A stretch of 64,000 nt of DNA from Escherichia coli (GTDB lineage: Bacteria > Pseudomonadota > Gammaproteobacteria > Enterobacterales > Enterobacteriaceae), in NCBI RefSeq assembly GCF_009931435.1, contig NZ_CP043414.1, one strand, 5' to 3'. The notes below the pieces were generated by a model. It ran no database searches, was not told where the DNA came from, and was given only the letters and a program-made list of their open reading frames with translations. The stretch's first letter is position 1. Each line of letters opens with the position of its first letter. A program made the translations under genes and the position numbers. Below, piece by piece: positions 12,875 to 58,958 of the stretch.

Positions 12875-12990
12875 ACCAAACGACTCGGGGTGCCCTTCTG
12901 CGTGAAGGCTGAGAAATACCCGTATCACCTGATCTGGATAATGCCAGCGTAGGGAAGTCACAGACCACCAGGTCATTGCTTCTTCACGTT
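12875..12990 (+). promoter_or_regulatory. TPP riboswitch (thi box) in the thiM leader
   Basis: ggggtgcccttctgcgtgaaggctgagaaatacccgtatcacctgatctggataatgccagcgtagggaa immediately upstream of thiM; conserved THI-element core (ctgaga, cctgatctggataatgccagcg). Boundaries approximate. Confidence 0.9.
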
Positions 12991-14592: not shown

Positions 14593-14656
14593 GCACCTTA
14601 CTATAGCTGCTTTGGTTATTGTCAGTATTTAGCGCTGACATTCAGGGATGAAACCA

Positions 14657-15475
14657 ATGCAGCTGAGAATCACCAGTCGAAAAAAATTCACCGCTTTATT
14701 ATGCGCTCTTGGGCTAATTTCCATCGTTGCAATTTATCCGCGTCAGACGGTGAATTTTTTCTATTCGACAGCAATTCAGATTAAAGACTACATCCACTTC
14801 TACGGTTATCGTCCGGTTAAATCTTTCGCTATTCGCATTCCTGCCAGTTACACCATTCACGGAATAGATGTTTCGCGCTGGCAGGAGCGGATCGACTGGC
14901 AGCGGGTGGCAAAAATGCGCGATAACGGTATTCGCTTGCAATTTGCCTTTATCAAGGCGACGGAAGGCGAAAAACTGGTGGACCCGTATTTTTCGCGTAA
15001 CTGGCAACTAAGCCGCGAAAATGGCCTGTTGCGTGGGGCGTATCATTATTTTTCCCCGTCGGTATCCGCCTCAGTTCAGGCGCGATTATTTCTGCAAACG
15101 GTGGATTTTGCCCACGGTGATCTCCCTGCTGTGCTGGACGTAGAAGAGCGCGGAAAATTATCGGCGAAGGAATTACGCAAGCAGGTAAGTCAGTGGCTAA
15201 AAATGGTCGAAAAAAGCACAGGAAAAAAGCCGATTATTTATGCAGGCGCGACGTTTTATCACACGAATCTGGCGGGGTATTTCAATGAATATCCGTGGTG
15301 GGTGGCTCACTATTATCAACGTCGTCCGGACAATGACGGCATGGCCTGGCGCTTCTGGCAGCATTCCGACCGTGGACAGGTAGATGGCATTAATGGTCTG
15401 GTGGATTTTAATGTGTTTAATGGCACGGTGGAGGAGCTGCAGGGATTCGTTGATGGGATTAAAGAAACGCCTTAA
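14657..15475 (+). CDS. yegX: Glycoside hydrolase family 25 (lysozyme-like) protein
   Basis: Track ORF starts 14648; ATG at 14657 has better Shine-Dalgarno spacing and gives 272 aa. GH25-like motifs (GIDVSRWQ, FAFIKATEG). Confidence 0.8.
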   Translation: MQLRITSRKKFTALLCALGLISIVAIYPRQTVNFFYSTAIQIKDYIHFYGYRPVKSFAIRIPASYTIHGIDVSRWQERIDWQRVAKMRDNGIRLQFAFIKATEGEKLVDPYFSRNWQLSRENGLLRGAYHYFSPSVSASVQARLFLQTVDFAHGDLPAVLDVEERGKLSAKELRKQVSQWLKMVEKSTGKKPIIYAGATFYHTNLAGYFNEYPWWVAHYYQRRPDNDGMAWRFWQHSDRGQVDGINGLVDFNVFNGTVEELQGFVDGIKETP

Positions 15476-15526
15476 ATAAGAAGCAGTGATATACTCCCAC
15501 CAGACTCCCTGGCAGGAAAAAGACAA

Positions 15527-16273
15527 ATGGAACAAGCGCATACCCAGCTGATTGCCCAACTGAACGAACGTATTTTAGCGGCGGATAACACGCCGCTTTA
15601 TATTAAGTTTGCCGAAACGGTGAAAAATGCCGTGCGCAGCGGGGTGCTGGAACATGGCAATATTTTACCCGGCGAGCGCGATTTAAGTCAGTTAACCGGC
15701 GTTTCGCGCATTACGGTGCGCAAGGCGATGCAGGCGCTGGAAGAAGAGGGCGTGGTGACACGTTCGCGCGGCTACGGCACGCAGATTAATAACATCTTTG
15801 AATACTCGTTAAAAGAAGCGCGAGGATTTTCTCAGCAGGTGGTGTTGCGCGGGAAAAAGCCCGATACGCTATGGGTTAACAAGCGAGTGGTTAAATGCCC
15901 TGAAGAGGTGGCGCAGCAATTGGCGGTCGAAGCGGGTAGTGATGTCTTTTTGCTTAAGCGTATTCGCTATGTTGATGAAGAAGCGGTCTCTATTGAGGAG
16001 TCGTGGGTTCCGGCGCATTTAATTCATGATGTTGATGCCATCGGAATCTCTCTTTATGACTACTTCCGCAGTCAGCATATTTTTCCAAAGCGTACCCGTT
16101 CCCGCGTTAGCGCCCGGATGCCGGATGCCGAGTTTCAGTCACATATTCAATTAGATAGTAAAATACCGGTGCTGGTGATCAAGCAAGTGGCGCTTGACCA
16201 ACAGCAACGGCCTATTGAGTACAGCATCAGCCACTGTCGCAGTGATCTATACGTTTTTGTGTGTGAGGAGTAG
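15527..16273 (+). CDS. yegW: GntR-family transcriptional regulator
   Basis: 248-aa ORF with N-terminal GntR-type helix-turn-helix (LPGERDLSQLTGVSRITVRKAMQAL) and UTRA-like C-terminus. Confidence 0.85.
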   Translation: MEQAHTQLIAQLNERILAADNTPLYIKFAETVKNAVRSGVLEHGNILPGERDLSQLTGVSRITVRKAMQALEEEGVVTRSRGYGTQINNIFEYSLKEARGFSQQVVLRGKKPDTLWVNKRVVKCPEEVAQQLAVEAGSDVFLLKRIRYVDEEAVSIEESWVPAHLIHDVDAIGISLYDYFRSQHIFPKRTRSRVSARMPDAEFQSHIQLDSKIPVLVIKQVALDQQQRPIEYSISHCRSDLYVFVCEE

Positions 16274-17212
16274 TTCCTCGCGGGTTGGCGCGCAATCACC
16301 GCCGCGATGCCCGACAACCCACGACGCCACTGCATTGCCCAGCAATACGGCATCCGCCAGTGGCAAACCAGAGGCCAGTCCAGCTAATACGCCACCTGCA
16401 TGACTGTCGCCCGCCCCAATGGTGTCTACAACTTGCGTTGGAAATGCCGGGATGCAGCCAGAAGCGTTATTGCTGAAATACCATGCGCCTTCTTTATCGA
16501 GACGAACGATCAACGGCGCGGCAAATTTCTCCTGCCATTGCTTGCCAAGTGTTGTTATCTCTGCTGATAAAGCAAAACGTTCGGCGGCAATCTCACCCTC
16601 CTGACGATTGAGTGACACTAAAGGTCGACAGGCCATGATTCGCGCCAGTAATGCATCCGGGATATCGCCAATACGTGGGCCAAAATCGATGAACGGCGTC
16701 ACGTCTTGCAGACTCTCCAGCCATTCCACTAACAATTCACCGCAGGGCGAGGCCAGTTGATAACCAGAAAAATAGAGCAGGCTGCCAGGCGCAACGGTTA
16801 ATCGCGCCAACCATTCGCGATTCCACTGATTTTCCACACCACTGAACGACATAAACGTGCGTTCACCATCAGGCTCAACCAGCGCCAGACACCAGCCGTT
16901 ATCGCCTTCGGCGTTATCGATGAGGCTGATTAATCCTTCTTTCGCCATCCGGTTACGAATAATTTCCGCCCACACACCCTGGCCGAGCGGCAGGGCATTA
17001 CCCGCTTCGATACCGAGGCGCTTTAACGCCACGGCAATATTCAGTGCGCAGCCGCCAACGTTAACGCTCTGCTGTTTCAGTTCGATATCGCACCCACGCC
17101 AGGGGAGGGCATAAGCGTCGGCGATCACATCAATGACTGCCGCGCCGACGACCATCACCGGCTGACGCGTGGTTAATTCAGGCAGCAGCGTGTGTAATCG
17201 AGCGCCGCTCAT
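16247..17212 (-). CDS. yegV: PfkB-family sugar/nucleoside kinase
   Basis: 321-aa ORF with ribokinase-family signatures (GGCALNIAVALKRLG; DTIGAGDSHAGG). 3' end overlaps the convergent yegW by 27 nt. Confidence 0.85.
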   Translation of the reverse strand: MSGARLHTLLPELTTRQPVMVVGAAVIDVIADAYALPWRGCDIELKQQSVNVGGCALNIAVALKRLGIEAGNALPLGQGVWAEIIRNRMAKEGLISLIDNAEGDNGWCLALVEPDGERTFMSFSGVENQWNREWLARLTVAPGSLLYFSGYQLASPCGELLVEWLESLQDVTPFIDFGPRIGDIPDALLARIMACRPLVSLNRQEGEIAAERFALSAEITTLGKQWQEKFAAPLIVRLDKEGAWYFSNNASGCIPAFPTQVVDTIGAGDSHAGGVLAGLASGLPLADAVLLGNAVASWVVGHRGGDCAPTREELLLTHKNV

Positions 17213-18213
17213 GCCGCCTCCCGTTGTTGGCGATACTTTGCCAGCGCCGTGGCATAATGATTAAAATCAAGCTGATTTACCGCATCCAGCTCCGTCTTAA
17301 ACGCAGGATCGATAGCGTTAACGCCATGCAATGCGCCGCAAATCGCCGTCGCCATAGCGCCGATGGTGTCTGTGTCGCCGCCAAGGTTAGCGCACAGGAT
17401 GGCGCAACGGTTCGGGTCGGTTTGTGCCAGTTCAACCAGCGCAATGGCGCACGGAACGGACTCAATAGTACTGGTACCTGCCCCAACCACCTGATACAGC
17501 TGTTCGCTGGCGGATTCGGTGCCGTCGGCATTGCGCACAATTTTCAGCGCAATCTCCAGACGTGCTGCCAGTGAGGCGCTGAAGGTAGTGATGCGTTTTT
17601 GCTGTGCATGTCGCGCAATCGAGGGTAGAGAATCAACAATCGCTGACCAGCTTTCTCCGTCAATGGCACGGGAAATCGCCCATGCGATGACTACCGCACC
17701 TGCCACCGCCAGATCGGATTTATGGGTCGGGCTGGACGCCAGCGCCACATCATCAATAAAGGAATCAACATTGCGCGCCGGAAGCAAACAACCTAATGGC
17801 GAGACGCGCATCGCTGCGCCGTTGGTCACGCCATTGTTTTCCAGTTCAGCAACGGGTTTACCGTCGCGAATGGCGTTAAGCGCAATCTTCGAGGTCGGAC
17901 CTAGTACGTTTTTGTTAAAGGCGTCGAAACGCAGCGCCCAGTCGAGAATATTACGCCCAATCAGATCCGGATCGATCTTGCCTTCACGTTCCAGTAACGC
18001 ATCCGCCAGACACAGCGCCATCGAGGTATCGTCGGTGAATTCGGCGCGGTTAAAATAACAGGCCGCGTTATTCTCCTTTGGTCCAGGAAGAAAACGGTCA
18101 ATCCAGCCAAAGTGTGCTTTAACGCGGCTGCGTGGCCAAAGCTCGGAGGGCATCCCCATCGCATCCCCTAACGCCTGCCCATAAAGAGCACCGAGAATAC
18201 GTTCTGTTTTCAT
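17209..18213 (-). CDS. yegU: ADP-ribosylglycohydrolase-family protein
   Basis: 334-aa ORF MKTERILGALYGQALGDAMGMPSE; 4-nt overlaps with yegT upstream and yegV downstream. Confidence 0.85.
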   Translation of the reverse strand: MKTERILGALYGQALGDAMGMPSELWPRSRVKAHFGWIDRFLPGPKENNAACYFNRAEFTDDTSMALCLADALLEREGKIDPDLIGRNILDWALRFDAFNKNVLGPTSKIALNAIRDGKPVAELENNGVTNGAAMRVSPLGCLLPARNVDSFIDDVALASSPTHKSDLAVAGAVVIAWAISRAIDGESWSAIVDSLPSIARHAQQKRITTFSASLAARLEIALKIVRNADGTESASEQLYQVVGAGTSTIESVPCAIALVELAQTDPNRCAILCANLGGDTDTIGAMATAICGALHGVNAIDPAFKTELDAVNQLDFNHYATALAKYRQQREAA

Positions 18214-19487
18214 TTAACTTCCCCTTGTGTCAACGCAATATCGCGATCATCGACCTTGATAGCCGTAATTTCGTTGTCGGATTCGCGGAAAAAAATCATG
18301 AACAGCACGGCGATAATGGCAATCATCACCGCGCCGAAAGTCCACATCCCGGACCAGTTGAAAGTCAGTCCGTTTACCGGTTCCGGATAAGCGAACATCT
18401 TTTCCATCATCACACCGCCAAGACGATAGCCGAGCAAACTGCCGAATCCCTGGCAGCAGAGCGTGATCAGCCCCTGCGCAGCGGTACGCATATGCACGGG
18501 GGCTTTTTTATCGACATAGATGTAAGCGGTAACGTAGTAAAAATCGTAACTTACGCCATGCAGCAAAATGCCGAGGAACAGTAACGCGTAGGTGAAATAT
18601 TCATCCGCACTACCGTAAATAAAGAAGCCATAGCGGATCGCTGCGGTGACCAGACCAAGTAATAATACCTTTTTGATACCAAAGCGTTTAGTGAAAAACG
18701 GTAATGCCAGCATAAAGAATATTTCAGAGAACTGGCCGAGCGTCATCCAGCCGGTGGCATTTTTCATGCCGACTTCGGTCAGATAACCGTTGGCAAAGAT
18801 GTAATAGAACGCCAGTGGCATCGCAAACAGGAATGAACAGAAGAAAAAGACGAGGAAGTTTTTATCGCGCAGCAGGATCAGCGCATCCAGGCCGAGCATG
18901 ACTTTAATATCCATTTTGCCGGTGCTTTTTGGTGGCGTGTCGGGCAGGAAAAACGCAAACACACCGAGCAGAGCAGAACTTCCGGCGGTAATCAGCAGCG
19001 GGATGTTAGTCGGTGAGATATCGGCATACCCCAGTATTTGCGGCAAGAAACCACATGCCAGACCGGAGGCAATCCAGCCGATAGTGCCCATCACACGAAT
19101 GCGCGGGAAATCACGCTCAACATCCGGCACGTTGGCAAAAGCGATGCTGTTAGTCAGCGCAATGGTCGGCATATAGGTTAGCGAGTAGGCCAGCAGTAAC
19201 GGGAAGAACCCGGCAAAAGTGGTCTGTTGCGCAGCGAAATACATCAGCAGCGCGCCTGCGAACATCAATACCGCCAGCACTTTCTGCGCCGAGAAAAAGC
19301 GGTCAGTGATGGAGCCAACCAGAATTGGCGACAGGATCGCCGCAATGGCGGTACAGGCATACGACCAGCCAATTTCTCCGGCACTAAAACCGCTTTTACT
19401 TAACCACAACCACAATGGCACAAACCACGCGCCCCAGATAAACCATTCAACAAACATCATGAACGACAGCTTTGCTGTTGTTTTCAT
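18210..19487 (-). CDS. yegT: MFS nucleoside transporter-like protein
   Basis: 425-aa polytopic membrane protein; first gene of the yegT-yegU-yegV array. Confidence 0.85.
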   Translation of the reverse strand: MKTTAKLSFMMFVEWFIWGAWFVPLWLWLSKSGFSAGEIGWSYACTAIAAILSPILVGSITDRFFSAQKVLAVLMFAGALLMYFAAQQTTFAGFFPLLLAYSLTYMPTIALTNSIAFANVPDVERDFPRIRVMGTIGWIASGLACGFLPQILGYADISPTNIPLLITAGSSALLGVFAFFLPDTPPKSTGKMDIKVMLGLDALILLRDKNFLVFFFCSFLFAMPLAFYYIFANGYLTEVGMKNATGWMTLGQFSEIFFMLALPFFTKRFGIKKVLLLGLVTAAIRYGFFIYGSADEYFTYALLFLGILLHGVSYDFYYVTAYIYVDKKAPVHMRTAAQGLITLCCQGFGSLLGYRLGGVMMEKMFAYPEPVNGLTFNWSGMWTFGAVMIAIIAVLFMIFFRESDNEITAIKVDDRDIALTQGEVK

Positions 19488-19743
19488 CTTTTAATTCCTT
19501 CATGACAGGTAATGTAAGGTACACGATGACAATACCACTTAATAATACCTTTTAAATACCTTTGCGGTGAAAACTTGACCGCGCTAACATTTTTTCTGAT
19601 GAATCGAGCCAACAGAAAACGCTGAAAAAACATCCAAAAGATGGAAAAACTCGCCCGTAACGACCAGGATTATGATTGCCCGCAAAAGGCGGGCCAGGAC
19701 AATCCATAGCCGATATCCAATCGGAATTTACGGGAGCATAGTA

Positions 19744-20796
19744 ATGACAGATATTGCGCAGTTGCTTGGCAAAGACGCCGACAACCTTTTACAGCACCGT
19801 TGTATGACAATTCCTTCTGACCAGCTTTATCTCCCCGGACATGACTACGTAGACCGCGTAATGATTGACAATAATCGCCCGCCAGCGGTGTTACGTAATA
19901 TGCAGACGTTGTACAACACCGGGCGTCTGGCTGGCACAGGATATCTTTCTATTCTGCCGGTTGACCAGGGCGTTGAGCACTCTGCCGGAGCTTCATTTGC
20001 CGCTAACCCGCTCTACTTTGACCCGAAAAACATTGTTGAACTGGCGATCGAAGCGGGCTGTAACTGTGTGGCGTCAACCTACGGCGTGCTGGCATCGGTA
20101 TCGCGGCGTTACGCGCATCGCATTCCATTCCTTGTCAAACTTAATCACAACGAGACGCTAAGTTACCCGAACACTTACGATCAAACGCTGTATGCCAGCG
20201 TGGAGCAGGCGTTCAACATGGGCGCGGTGGCGGTTGGCGCGACCATCTATTTTGGCTCGGAAGAGTCACGTCGCCAGATTGAAGAAATTTCTGCGGCTTT
20301 TGAACGTGCGCACGAGCTGGGCATGGTGACCGTGCTGTGGGCCTATTTGCGTAACTCCGCCTTTAAGAAAGATGGCGTCGATTATCACGTTTCGGCTGAC
20401 CTGACCGGCCAGGCTAACCATCTGGCGGCAACCATAGGCGCAGATATCGTCAAACAAAAAATGGCGGAAAATAACGGCGGCTATAAAGCGATTAATTACG
20501 GTTATACCGACGATCGCGTGTACAGCAAGTTGACCAGCGAAAACCCGATTGATCTGGTGCGTTATCAGTTAGCTAACTGCTATATGGGTCGGGCTGGGTT
20601 GATAAACTCCGGCGGTGCTGCGGGCGGTGAAACTGACCTCAGCGATGCAGTGCGTACTGCGGTTATCAACAAACGCGCTGGCGGAATGGGGCTGATTCTT
20701 GGACGTAAGGCGTTCAAGAAATCGATGGCTGACGGCGTGAAACTGATTAATGCCGTGCAGGACGTTTATCTCGATAGCAAAATTACTATTGCCTGA
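19744..20796 (+). CDS. fbaB: Fructose-bisphosphate aldolase class I
   Basis: Track ORF 19672 has a 24-codon extension; ATG at 19744 gives [20 protein letters not shown] (350 aa). Confidence 0.95.
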
Positions 20797-29217: not shown

Positions 29218-29304
29218 AAAAAATAAGCCCGTGTAAGGGAGATTACACAGGCTAAGGAGGTGGTTCCTGGTACAGCTAGCATTTTATGGGTTATGTTTTT
29301 CAGC
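29218..29304 (-). ncRNA. cyaR: CyaR (RyeE) Hfq-dependent small RNA
   Basis: Minus-strand sequence GCUGAAAAACAUAACCCAUAAAAUGCUAGCUGUACCAGGAACCACCUCCUUAGCCUGUGUAAUCUCCCUUACACGGGCUUAUUUUUU matches the CyaR sequence as I recall it, including the terminator hairpin and U-tail. Confidence 0.85.
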
Positions 29305-29388
29305 GAAACGGATGATAACCTTAATAAATGCAGCTGTATGTGATCGGTTTCTAAGAATTTTCCATCCGGGAAAAATAATCGAAATTAA

Positions 29389-43389: not shown

Positions 43390-43531
43390 GAAACGGGAAA
43401 GCCCCTCCCGAGGAAGGGGCCTTAAATAAGGAAAGGGTCATGATGAAGCTACTCATCATCGTGGTGCTCTTAGTGATTAGCTACCCAGCATACTAAGACT
43501 ACCAGGGCGGGGGAAACCCCGCTCTACCCTC
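43390..43531 (-). ncRNA. sibB: Sib antisense RNA covering ibsB
   Basis: Minus-strand promoter: -35 TTGACA (revcomp of about 43562-43567), 17-nt spacer, -10 TACTTT (revcomp of about 43539-43544); terminator-like hairpin gcccctcc...ggaagggg near 43401-43420. Ends approximate. Confidence 0.6.
43440..43496 (+). CDS. ibsB: Type I toxin Ibs (18 aa, hydrophobic)
   Basis: ATGATGAAGCTACTC... encodes MMKLLIIVVLLVISYPAY, preceded by aaggaaaggg. A/B assignment by position (copy nearer mdtA), from memory. Confidence 0.8.
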   Translation: MMKLLIIVVLLVISYPAY

Positions 43532-43717
43532 ACTCCTGAAAGTATGCCTTCACGATAAGATTGTCAATCCGCAGGATTTGCCGTCTGCGATCCTGCCAGC
43601 AAATATTCTTTGCGAGTCGTTACGCAATAATCACAGAGGAAACTATTTTATTCACGCGTTAGCGATAGACTGCATTCAGGGCGAAAGGAGGTAAGCCGAT
43701 GATTTCAGCGGGACGCT

Positions 43718-43866
43718 GAAACGGGAAAGCCTCTCCCGGAGAAGAGGGCTTTTAATAAGGAAAGGGTTATGATGAAGCACGTCATCATACTGGTGATACT
43801 CTTAGTGATTAGCTTCCAGGCTTACTAAGAACACCAGGGGGAGGGGGAAACCTCTCCCTAACCCTC
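43718..43866 (-). ncRNA. sibA: Sib antisense RNA covering ibsA
   Basis: Minus-strand promoter: -35 TTGACA (revcomp of about 43897-43902), 17-nt spacer, -10 TAATTT (revcomp of about 43874-43879); hairpin gcctctcccggagaagagggc near 43730-43750. Ends approximate. Confidence 0.6.
43769..43828 (+). CDS. ibsA: Type I toxin Ibs (19 aa, hydrophobic)
   Basis: ATGATGAAGCACGTC... encodes MMKHVIILVILLVISFQAY; second copy of the repeat unit, nearer yegL. Confidence 0.8.
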   Translation: MMKHVIILVILLVISFQAY

Positions 43867-44048
43867 ACTCCTGAAATTATGTCACTCCGCACTTAGTGTC
43901 AATCGACGGCTCTCCGTTCTTGCGAGGCGAATAGCAAAATTTTCTGCGCCGCCGGGCCTAATTCTGAAAGTTTCTTCGTTTGCTCTTATTTCATTATTGC
44001 AGTCGGTATGATACCGGACCTCGATAATTCTCTAAGAAAGGATTTCTT

Positions 44049-58478: not shown

Positions 58479-58946
58479 AGTAAGTACAAAACCTATTCGT
58501 TGTATGACAAATGTCACAATTCGATCATGGATAAATCGGGGCAAAAATGCAATGTTGCAGCACTATTTATCTCATATTATTTGAGGGTAATAACCTCACA
58601 TTATCCCTGAATTAAAAGTGGTAATAATAAAACATTATTTAAGAAATATCGCATGTGGAGGCGCAATATTAAATATTGTCAACCTAAAGAAACTCCTAAA
58701 AACCATATTGAATGACACTTAATATAATTCTTAAAAATAGCCAATTGCCGAATTGTTACCTTGCCTGCTATTCCGTTAGCTGTAACACTTCCTCCTGCAT
58801 TATTGGAGAGCCAATATTCAATTACCATAATGTCACCTTATATTCGGAAGTTAATTTCCGCAATAACCCTTTCTCATCAACGATTGTATGCAGAGAGGGT
58901 TTGAAAAATTAAGCTAAATCAGTGTATTGGTAGCTAAAAAGCCAGG

Positions 58947-58958
58947 GGCGGTAGCGTG
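58947..58958 (+). promoter_or_regulatory. ops (operon polarity suppressor) element in the wza 5' leader
   Basis: ggcggtagcgtg seen directly, about 180 nt upstream of the wza ATG; matches the RfaH-recruiting ops consensus GGCGGTAGnnTG. Confidence 0.7.

Follow-up and report, generated by a model that had tools for sequence, protein, structure and literature searches.

What compound would a permease, a hydrolase and a kinase handle together in Escherichia coli? The question is raised by the yegT-yegU-yegV array in the stretch of DNA analysed here (64,000 nucleotides of E. coli contig NZ_CP043414.1, referred to below as the window), in which a nucleoside-transporter-like permease, an enzyme of the ADP-ribosylglycohydrolase (ARH) family and a PfkB-family kinase are encoded beside yegW, the gene of a GntR-family repressor named GgaR. 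The reading that we put forward, and to which we give about an even chance of being correct, is that yegTUV encodes a regulated three-step route of import, phosphorylation and cleavage for a non-canonical riboside, with an operator made of GGTAT repeats. According to this proposal, YegT would import the riboside with a proton, YegV would phosphorylate its 5'-OH, and the di-metal ribose site of YegU would then hydrolyse the C1 glycosidic bond, releasing ribose 5-phosphate and the free aglycone; the ATGA overlaps between the genes would couple the translation of YegT, YegU and YegV. The genes and their overlaps, with positions counted from the first nucleotide of the window, are as follows.

15527-16273, plus strand: yegW (ggaR), 248 aa, from the open reading frame (ORF) listing, with GntR and UTRA Pfam matches
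16247-17212, minus strand: yegV, 321 aa, from the ORF listing, with a Pfam PfkB match
17209-18213, minus strand: yegU, 334 aa, from the ORF listing, with a Pfam ADP_ribosyl_GH match
18210-19487, minus strand: yegT, 425 aa, from the ORF listing, with a Pfam Nuc_H_symport match
17209-17212, minus strand: ATGA overlap of the yegU stop and the yegV start, 4 nt, of the translational-coupling type
18210-18213, minus strand: ATGA overlap of the yegT stop and the yegU start, 4 nt
16247-16273, both strands: convergent overlap of the yegV and yegW coding sequences (CDS), CTATACGTTTTTGTGTGTGAGGAGTAG, dual-coding in the same codon register

The kinase YegV was matched by the Pfam PfkB model at 185.7 bits against a cutoff of 25.8 (E = 1.6e-54), and the PfkB signatures D28, G53-G54, N58, N202-R-Q-E205 and D263-T-I-G-A-G-D269 were present. 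Its AlphaFold model (predicted local distance difference test, pLDDT, 92.6) aligned with ribokinase-family structures at template-modelling scores (TM-scores) of 0.75-0.81; these fold neighbours are all 17-24% identical to YegV, and the fold searches confirm the folds of YegU and YegV but do not discriminate the substrate. Two residues of the E. coli ribokinase that are strictly conserved among ribokinases, Lys43 and Glu143, fill the space that a nucleobase would take (PMC7797080). The corresponding residues of YegV are Cys55 and Ala154. Among 27 members of the YegV family, the Lys43 position was occupied by Cys in 24 and by Ser in 3, never by Lys, and the ligands of the ribose 2'/3'-OH and 5'-OH groups (D28, G53-G54, N58 and D269) were invariant. 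Against the ribokinase equivalog model TIGR02152, YegV scored 80 bits, below the cutoff of 299.65. Judged by these residues, YegV looks like a kinase for a C1-substituted ribose and not for ribose, and it is predicted to be a riboside 5'-kinase. A 2025 paper lists YegV as an uncharacterised sugar kinase, and a study of the Prc protease mentions it only as a cytoplasmic protein cleavable in vitro, a cleavage that was judged non-physiological.

The hydrolase YegU was matched by the Pfam ADP_ribosyl_GH model (PF03747) over residues 8-302 at 224.3 bits against a cutoff of 26.2 (E = 3.3e-66), and its AlphaFold model (pLDDT 97.2) has the all-helical ARH fold. A Foldseek search with this model returned MJ1187 (TM-score 0.82/0.90), ARH3 (~0.77) and DraG (~0.76/0.86), with a probability of 1.00. 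The YegU motifs GDAMGMPSE (E24), FTDDT (59-63) and GGDTDT (278-283) aligned to the metal-binding and catalytic residues of ARH3, which we took to be Glu41, Thr76-Asp77-Asp78, and Asp314, Asp316 and Thr317 (partly from the mutant names E41A, D77A and D314A). Among 36 homologues, D61 and D282 were invariant, and T60, D62, D280 and T283 were at least 90% conserved. The aromatic pair that stacks on adenine in ARH3 is replaced by Asn and Val in YegU, across a 3-residue deletion, and this altered adenine clamp speaks weakly against ADP-ribose as the YegU substrate. Characterised ARH enzymes act on a ribose with a 5''-phosphate ester and cleave its C1'' bond, and recognition of the pyrophosphate and the distal ribose is the conserved part of the ARH fold (PMC6309922, PMC9738213); in the alignment, YegU keeps the residues for this recognition. 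YegU is predicted to be a glycosidic-bond hydrolase that acts on a ribose 5-phosphate derivative. Since the ribokinase residues are changed in YegV and ARH chemistry operates on a 5''-phosphorylated ribose, phosphorylation before hydrolysis is the favoured order.

The transporter YegT was matched by Pfam Nuc_H_symport (1.4e-183) and by the NCBIfam model TIGR00889 at 652.8 bits against a cutoff of 446.1. With a score above the subfamily cutoff, a 12-transmembrane MFS architecture and the GxxxD proton site of transmembrane segment 10 (G311-V-S-Y-D315), YegT belongs to the NHS family (TC 2.A.1.10); E255 is also present. A 3.1 A crystal structure published in 2025 showed a NupG-like fold that superposes on NupG, and isothermal titration calorimetry of YegT gave no significant signal with uridine, adenosine, cytidine or guanosine (PMC11979927). 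The residues with which NupG contacts the base are not conserved in YegT. By these published titrations, the YegT substrate lies outside the four canonical nucleosides.

Among 1.84 billion representative proteins, 232 YegU relatives scored below 1e-30. Nine of the ten long homologues examined were ARH-PfkB fusions, in both domain orders, and in seven of nine distant neighbourhoods the ARH gene adjoined or was fused to a PfkB gene and was accompanied by a transporter. The transporter class varied, being NCS1, ECF or sugar-type ABC in the distant neighbourhoods and NHS-MFS in the window; across bacteria, five transporter types accompany the pair of YegU-like hydrolase and YegV-like kinase. A HutC-type GntR regulator was found in two of the distant neighbourhoods, PNP_UDP_1 in one, and DeoC with a phosphopentomutase-like gene in one. 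The partner PfkB genes are YegV-like, with 32-39% identity to YegV (E 1e-48 to 1e-73, as against ~1e-14 for solved ribokinases). Overall, the fusions and neighbourhoods indicate that the conserved unit is an importer, a YegV-type kinase and a YegU-type hydrolase, in a nucleoside or pentose context. An earlier note on this DNA, made from the sequence alone, had called the locus a nucleoside/ADP-ribosyl-type salvage module. The first of these labels is supported by the context, in which YegU/YegV-like pairs travel with nucleoside or nucleobase-type transporters; the second is less likely, as the ribose/di-metal site of ARH3 is kept in YegU but its adenine-stacking residues are not, and a dedicated kinase would make little sense with an ADP-ribosyl substrate; and salvage is not established, the gene content reading as catabolism. 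The same note had held that the substrate is not evident from sequence, and this stands: the literature searched contained no substrate assignment, and no biochemical assignment of YegU, YegV, MJ1187 or ARH-PfkB pairs was found in it.

We suggest, tentatively, that this is a widespread cassette in which an ARH enzyme serves small-molecule catabolism, cleaving a riboside 5'-phosphate and not an ADP-ribosylated macromolecule. The substrate could be an alpha-riboside, because the characterised enzymes ARH1 and ARH3 are specific for alpha-linked ribose; candidates, we assume, would include the lower-ligand nucleosides freed from gut cobamides, such as alpha-ribazole. If this suggestion is true, the ARH fold gains a function in metabolism beyond ADP-ribosylation, an annotation becomes available for hundreds of homologous cassettes, some with fused enzymes, in Proteobacteria, Firmicutes-like genomes and metagenomes, and the link of the locus to ADP-glucose and glycogen would be indirect. 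In a 6.4-Mb genome (L097 2795-4933), an ARH domain and a faint 3-keto-disaccharide-hydrolase-like match occur together in one protein of 712 residues. Its gene lies next to a PfkB gene, another ARH gene and genes for an ABC transporter of the sugar type, an arrangement that suggests cassette diversification. No riboswitch was found to control the distant ARH operons. Two riboswitches that are unrelated to the control of these operons lie a few kb from distant ARH-PfkB operons, namely a guanidine-I riboswitch beside SMR efflux genes (L008 12918-13023, minus strand) and a thiamine pyrophosphate (TPP) riboswitch before a TenA-family gene (L010 11315-11405, plus strand).

The locus in the window is the described yegT-yegU-yegV operon, accompanied by the convergent gene of its repressor, yegW (GgaR). 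In RefSeq, the best-matching E. coli chromosome carries the same four CDS with identical boundaries and offsets. Of 5426 complete E. coli genomes, 5424 contain the 5.5-kb stretch (identity 95-99%, with 98.3% for the best match); it belongs to the core DNA of Escherichia. Earlier papers already cover the genes, their operon, the repressor, the structure of YegT and the convergent overlap of the transcripts. The gene identities and domain families given in the earlier note agree with the ORF listing, the Pfam and NCBIfam searches and the RefSeq annotation; the operon-like chaining by 4-nt overlaps that it described is exact to the base at both junctions, and its 27-nt overlap of the yegV and yegW 3' ends was found at 16247-16273. 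It had placed the regulator correctly as convergent in its text and wrongly as "divergent" in its title; yegW is convergent with yegV, and the gene divergent from yegT is fbaB. At both ATGA junctions (start ATG, stop TGA), Shine-Dalgarno-like sequences, GGGGAAG and GGGAGG, lie within the upstream gene.

To assess conservation, a YegU scan with one genome per species was used, which gave 80 loci from Escherichia, Citrobacter, Salmonella, Klebsiella/Raoultella, Enterobacter, Lelliottia, Buttiauxella, Cedecea, Pectobacterium and others. The order yegT-yegU-yegV with a convergent yegW was found in 76 of the 80 loci, the overlap of yegT and yegU was 4 nt in 69 of 79, that of yegU and yegV was 4 nt in 64 of 80, that of yegV and yegW was exactly 27 nt in 72 of 77, and fbaB was divergent from yegT in 72 of 76. 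The gene arrangement is conserved rather than accidental. At the other end of the locus, yegX (GH25 family; 14648-15475, plus strand) precedes yegW by 51 nt and has the same orientation, and it was found upstream of yegW in 3 of 77 loci, in Escherichia only. The promoter scan found no promoter-like site between yegX and yegW; since yegX stands beside yegW only in Escherichia, the yegW promoter is unlikely to be common to the genera.

With respect to regulation, YegW was matched by Pfam GntR over residues 29-87 (59.2 bits, 3.1e-16) and by UTRA over residues 108-242 (123.8 bits, 6.1e-36), the architecture of the HutC subfamily of GntR regulators, with an N-terminal winged helix and a C-terminal UTRA effector domain. 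Its closest solved relative is YvoA/NagR (4.8e-22), and it scored under every named NCBIfam equivalog cutoff (e.g., PhnF, 128.4 against 156.8). Saito et al. (2024; PMC10819704), using chromatin immunoprecipitation with microarrays, gel shift, Northern blot and reverse-transcription quantitative PCR, described YegW as GgaR, a regulator with a single genomic target. GgaR bound strongly at the fbaB/yegT spacer and weakly at a fragment inside yegT (nt 571-869), and it repressed one ~3.3-kb yegTUV mRNA ~30-fold; fbaB was not controlled. No GgaR consensus or footprint is given in that paper. The candidate regulatory sites in the window are as follows.

19518-19563, minus strand: predicted primary GgaR operator, AAAGGTATTTAAAAGGTATTATTAAGTGGTATTGTCATCGTGTACC in yegT orientation, with three direct GGTAT repeats and an inverted GTACC
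19571-19542, minus strand: promoter-like TTCACC-18-TATTAT, its -10-like TATTAT (19547-19542) lying under the predicted operator
18644-18680, minus strand: second, weaker operator-like copy inside yegT (nt 808-844 of the yegT ORF)
16147-16211, minus strand: candidate yegTUV terminator inside the yegW CDS, a strong hairpin followed by U-rich UAUUUUACUAU; tentative

The strongest direct repeat in 18600-19700 was 37 nt long and 81% identical, pairing 19524-19560 with 18644-18680. The primary operator candidate lies within the 190-bp gel-shift probe bound by GgaR, and the intragenic copy lies within the low-affinity probe-5 (PMC10819704). When up to three mismatches were allowed, the 20-mer GGTATNNAAAAGGTATTATT occurred solely at these two sites in the window (0.03 expected), and across 79 aligned species the promoter core AAAGGTATTTAAAAGGTATTATT...TGGTAT...GTACC was almost invariant and its flanks drifted. 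We propose, from these sequence patterns, that the GGTAT-repeat array is the GgaR operator and represses by occlusion of the -10 element. GgaR would recognise the GGTAT repeats over the -10 region of yegT, and the weaker intragenic copy, 880 bp downstream, may aid through cooperative binding or looping. A strict HutC-type GTnTAnAC palindrome was absent from 15000-20000. The promoter scan (5 against 4.2 shuffled) and the terminator scan (8 against 6.1) gave counts no higher than shuffled sequence, and of the promoter-scan matches only the site coinciding with the conserved operator was used. As for the 3' end of the operon, the minus-strand RNA of 16130-16275 had a fold z of -4.25, with 0 of 200 shuffles as stable, and the position of the candidate terminator fits the published 3.3-kb mRNA. 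The hairpin downstream of yegV was rejected as a conserved RNA element: RNAalifold over 36 species kept the outer stem only, with a covariation term of -0.2. On the opposite strand, a terminator-like GC-rich hairpin followed by TTATATT (15577-15597, plus strand) lies ~50 nt into the yegW CDS and may be due to chance.

Several observations weigh against the riboside route and its regulation as proposed. The nearest folds of YegV are ribokinases (and also nucleoside kinases), and a pentose kinase is compatible with the fold; three distant members of the family may carry Glu at the Glu143 position, where the alignment is uncertain; and the order of the two enzymatic steps is one that we infer from active-site comparison and family chemistry. 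The synonymous sites at the intragenic operator-like copy showed no extra conservation across genera, an absence of constraint that fits a weak auxiliary site, and the terminator hairpin was poorly conserved across genera. GgaR was constant, at ~20-30 molecules per cell, under the published conditions, with no sign of antisense feedback (PMC10819704). The same study reports that ADP-glucose at 10-100 uM, and not ADP or glucose, frees GgaR from DNA in vitro, that deletion of ggaR results in 2-3 fold more glycogen and slower growth in minimal glucose medium, and that a yegV deletion had earlier been listed among low-glycogen mutants.

The 27-nt overlap of yegV and yegW is the next point on which explanations differ. 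In this overlap, the TAG stop of either gene faces a CTA (Leu) codon in its partner, and loss of either stop would lengthen the protein by 31 or 37 residues. Nucleotide conservation was 0.93 in the overlap, as against 0.74 for the yegV-only blocks just before it; the YegW C-terminus CRSDLYVFVCEE is nearly invariant and the YegV tail is variable, and the high conservation of the overlap arises because the YegW C-terminus is near-invariant. Most simply, yegV would end at the first stop antisense to the highly constrained end of yegW, and the overlap would mostly be an old, tolerated consequence of this. Insertions of 56-111 nt part the intact yegV and yegW genes in Citrobacter amalonaticus, C. 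sedlakii and two Buttiauxella agrestis assemblies, and in these four loci the YegV tail is unrelated to the usual one. The overlap has thus been lost in four species with both genes kept and is not indispensable. The insertions are short and hairpin-containing or repeat-like (L025 6991-7048, L041 6964-7034, L090 6966-7078 and L092 6966-7077). In Yokenella (L061), the yegW frame is lengthened to 324 codons, giving a 271-nt overlap.

It has been suggested, in the earlier note, that the overlap could create transcriptional interference or antisense coupling. As the CDS overlap, full-length yegTUV and yegW mRNAs have complementary 3' ends, for 27 nt at the least, and the mRNA overlap would probably be ~100 nt or more if the candidate hairpin at 16147-16211 is the terminator. 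The ExcludonFinder study (PMC12288877) counts yegV-yegW among 165 convergent excludons found in at least half of 58 E. coli transcriptomes, and with 27 nt of common CDS and this listing the pair is an excludon in the sense of overlapping opposite-strand transcripts. In principle, induction of yegTUV could lower GgaR synthesis through the complementary 3' ends. A stronger version, in which the overlap is a selected device (a true excludon) whose transcription from yegTUV collides or pairs with yegW mRNA to give less repressor and a switch-like induction, is in our view unlikely. The constancy of the overlap at exactly 27 nt in 72 of 77 species, along with that of the rare CTA Leu codon from which yegV takes its stop, would suit such a device, but the near-invariant YegW C-terminus accounts for that conservation; membership in the E. 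coli core excludome would suit it also, but an RNA-seq excludon criterion is trivial, being reached almost automatically, when the CDS overlap. The terminator scan found no intrinsic terminator between yegV and yegW, which again is as a collision would have it; against this stand the insertions between intact genes in four species with unrelated YegV tails, the constant level of GgaR protein in the conditions examined, and the absence of any report of reciprocal yegV/yegW expression. Antisense coupling is plausible and catalogued from RNA-seq, and an antisense effect of the overlap is possible but would be minor.

A different order of steps would have YegU, as an unorthodox nucleoside hydrolase, act first on an unphosphorylated riboside, after which YegV, as a ribokinase paralogue, would phosphorylate the ribose. 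We consider this order quite unlikely. Ribokinases are the best NCBIfam as well as fold matches of YegV, yet the 80 bits against the ribokinase equivalog fall far below 299.65, and E. coli already has RbsK for ribose. Ribose-utilisation loci of Bacteroidetes do pair ribokinases with ADP-ribosylglycohydrolases or nucleoside hydrolases (bioRxiv 10.1101/574913), but the characterised ARH substrates in the reviews (PMC6309922, PMC9738213) all bear a phosphate ester on the cleaved ribose; the ARH-PfkB fusions and the synteny fit either order equally.

The published proposal is that YegTUV directly takes up, makes or converts ADP-glucose and that GgaR senses ADP-glucose, setting glycogen storage. 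It is the sole functional proposal for yegTUV, it fits the comparative genomics poorly, and we regard it as very unlikely. The release of GgaR from DNA by ADP-glucose supports it; however, the effectors examined left out ADP-ribose, nucleosides and nucleoside monophosphates (PMC10819704), and ADP-glucose, which holds a 5'-phosphoribosyl moiety, may mimic the true GgaR ligand, as we interpret it. Glycogen is raised in the ggaR deletion and yegTUV mRNA goes up ~3-fold with more glucose (PMC10819704), but a glycohydrolase that cleaved ADP-glucose would remove the precursor of glycogen and lower glycogen, the opposite of the phenotype. The listing of yegV among low-glycogen mutants speaks for the proposal as well; even so, none of YegT, YegU and YegV is known to act on ADP-glucose, the authors call their functions unknown (PMC10819704), and in the neighbourhoods examined the ARH-PfkB pair occurs elsewhere with NCS1, ECF and ABC importers and with nucleoside or pentose catabolism genes, not with glg genes.

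That YegU reverses ADP-ribosylation of protein or nucleic acid, as do DraG, ARH1/3 and Tri1, in a locus for regulation or immunity, has almost no chance of being correct, for although YegU has the ARH fold, a complete di-metal site and weak matches to the DraG and Tri1 models, its scores fall far below those family cutoffs (80.3 against 337.05 for DraG and 71.6 against 490 for Tri1, both NCBIfam equivalogs), no ADP-ribosyltransferase is encoded near yegU, the gene shares its transcript with those of a permease and a kinase, under a repressor of the catabolic type, defence-system models were unmatched, and the adenine-stacking residues of ARH3 are not conserved.

Other features were observed around the locus. 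The mechanical ORF of fbaB runs from 19672 to 20796 (plus strand), and the RefSeq start is the equivalent of 19744; the longer ORF would extend into the common control region of fbaB and yegT. An Rfam scan of 15000-20000 at a permissive setting found no RNA family. Elsewhere in the window, a TPP riboswitch (12876-12972, plus strand, 71.5 bits) lies upstream of thiM-thiD, as annotated in E. coli, and matches above the Rfam gathering scores were found for the CyaR small RNA (29221-29306, minus strand), two tandem Sib antitoxin RNAs (43425-43567 and 43754-43902, minus strand) and a JUMPstart element (58920-58958, plus strand). There are no tRNA genes in the window.

When compared with known systems, the locus is the same as the yegTUV/GgaR locus described in E. 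coli K-12 (PMC10819704), with identical gene order, lengths and overlaps; that paper describes the repressor along with both regions that it binds and the one mRNA, and the operator motif and the riboside reading are added here. Among the excludons of PMC12288877, the yegV-yegW pair is itself on the list, and here it is the CDS that overlap, so that the overlap of the transcripts is unavoidable. Relative to NupG, of the NHS family that includes XapB, YegT is ~27% identical, and NupG Phe143, Asn228, Tyr318 and Phe322 are not conserved in it. With the ARH family (ARH1/ARH3, DraG, Tri1 and MJ1187), YegU shares the helical fold and the di-metal and distal-ribose motifs at 20-27% identity, MJ1187 being its closest solved relative; it differs in lacking the ARH3 adenine clamp and in having a kinase and a permease, and not an ADP-ribosyltransferase, as partners. 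YegW shares with NagR/YvoA the winged helix-turn-helix and UTRA architecture and a local catabolic target, whereas the predicted GgaR repeats are mainly direct (three GGTAT and one inverted GTACC) and do not form a simple palindrome. The GGT-type half-site that NagR/DasR-type operators presumably contain resembles the GGTAT repeats. A counterpart in logic is the pseudouridine operon psuK-psuG-psuT (yeiC-yeiN-yeiM) of E. coli, which likewise combines a dedicated permease, a PfkB-family nucleoside 5'-kinase and a 5'-monophosphate glycosidase that yields ribose 5-phosphate and the base, and whose kinase, like YegV, is without the ribokinase residues that block the base pocket (PMC7797080). The PsuG/IndA-like glycosidase fold is unrelated to the ARH fold of YegU, and the regulator, transporter family and substrate also differ. 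The likeness of yegTUV to the pseudouridine operon is an analogy of proposed mechanism, not family membership, in which a riboside would be imported, phosphorylated at its 5'-OH and then cleaved.

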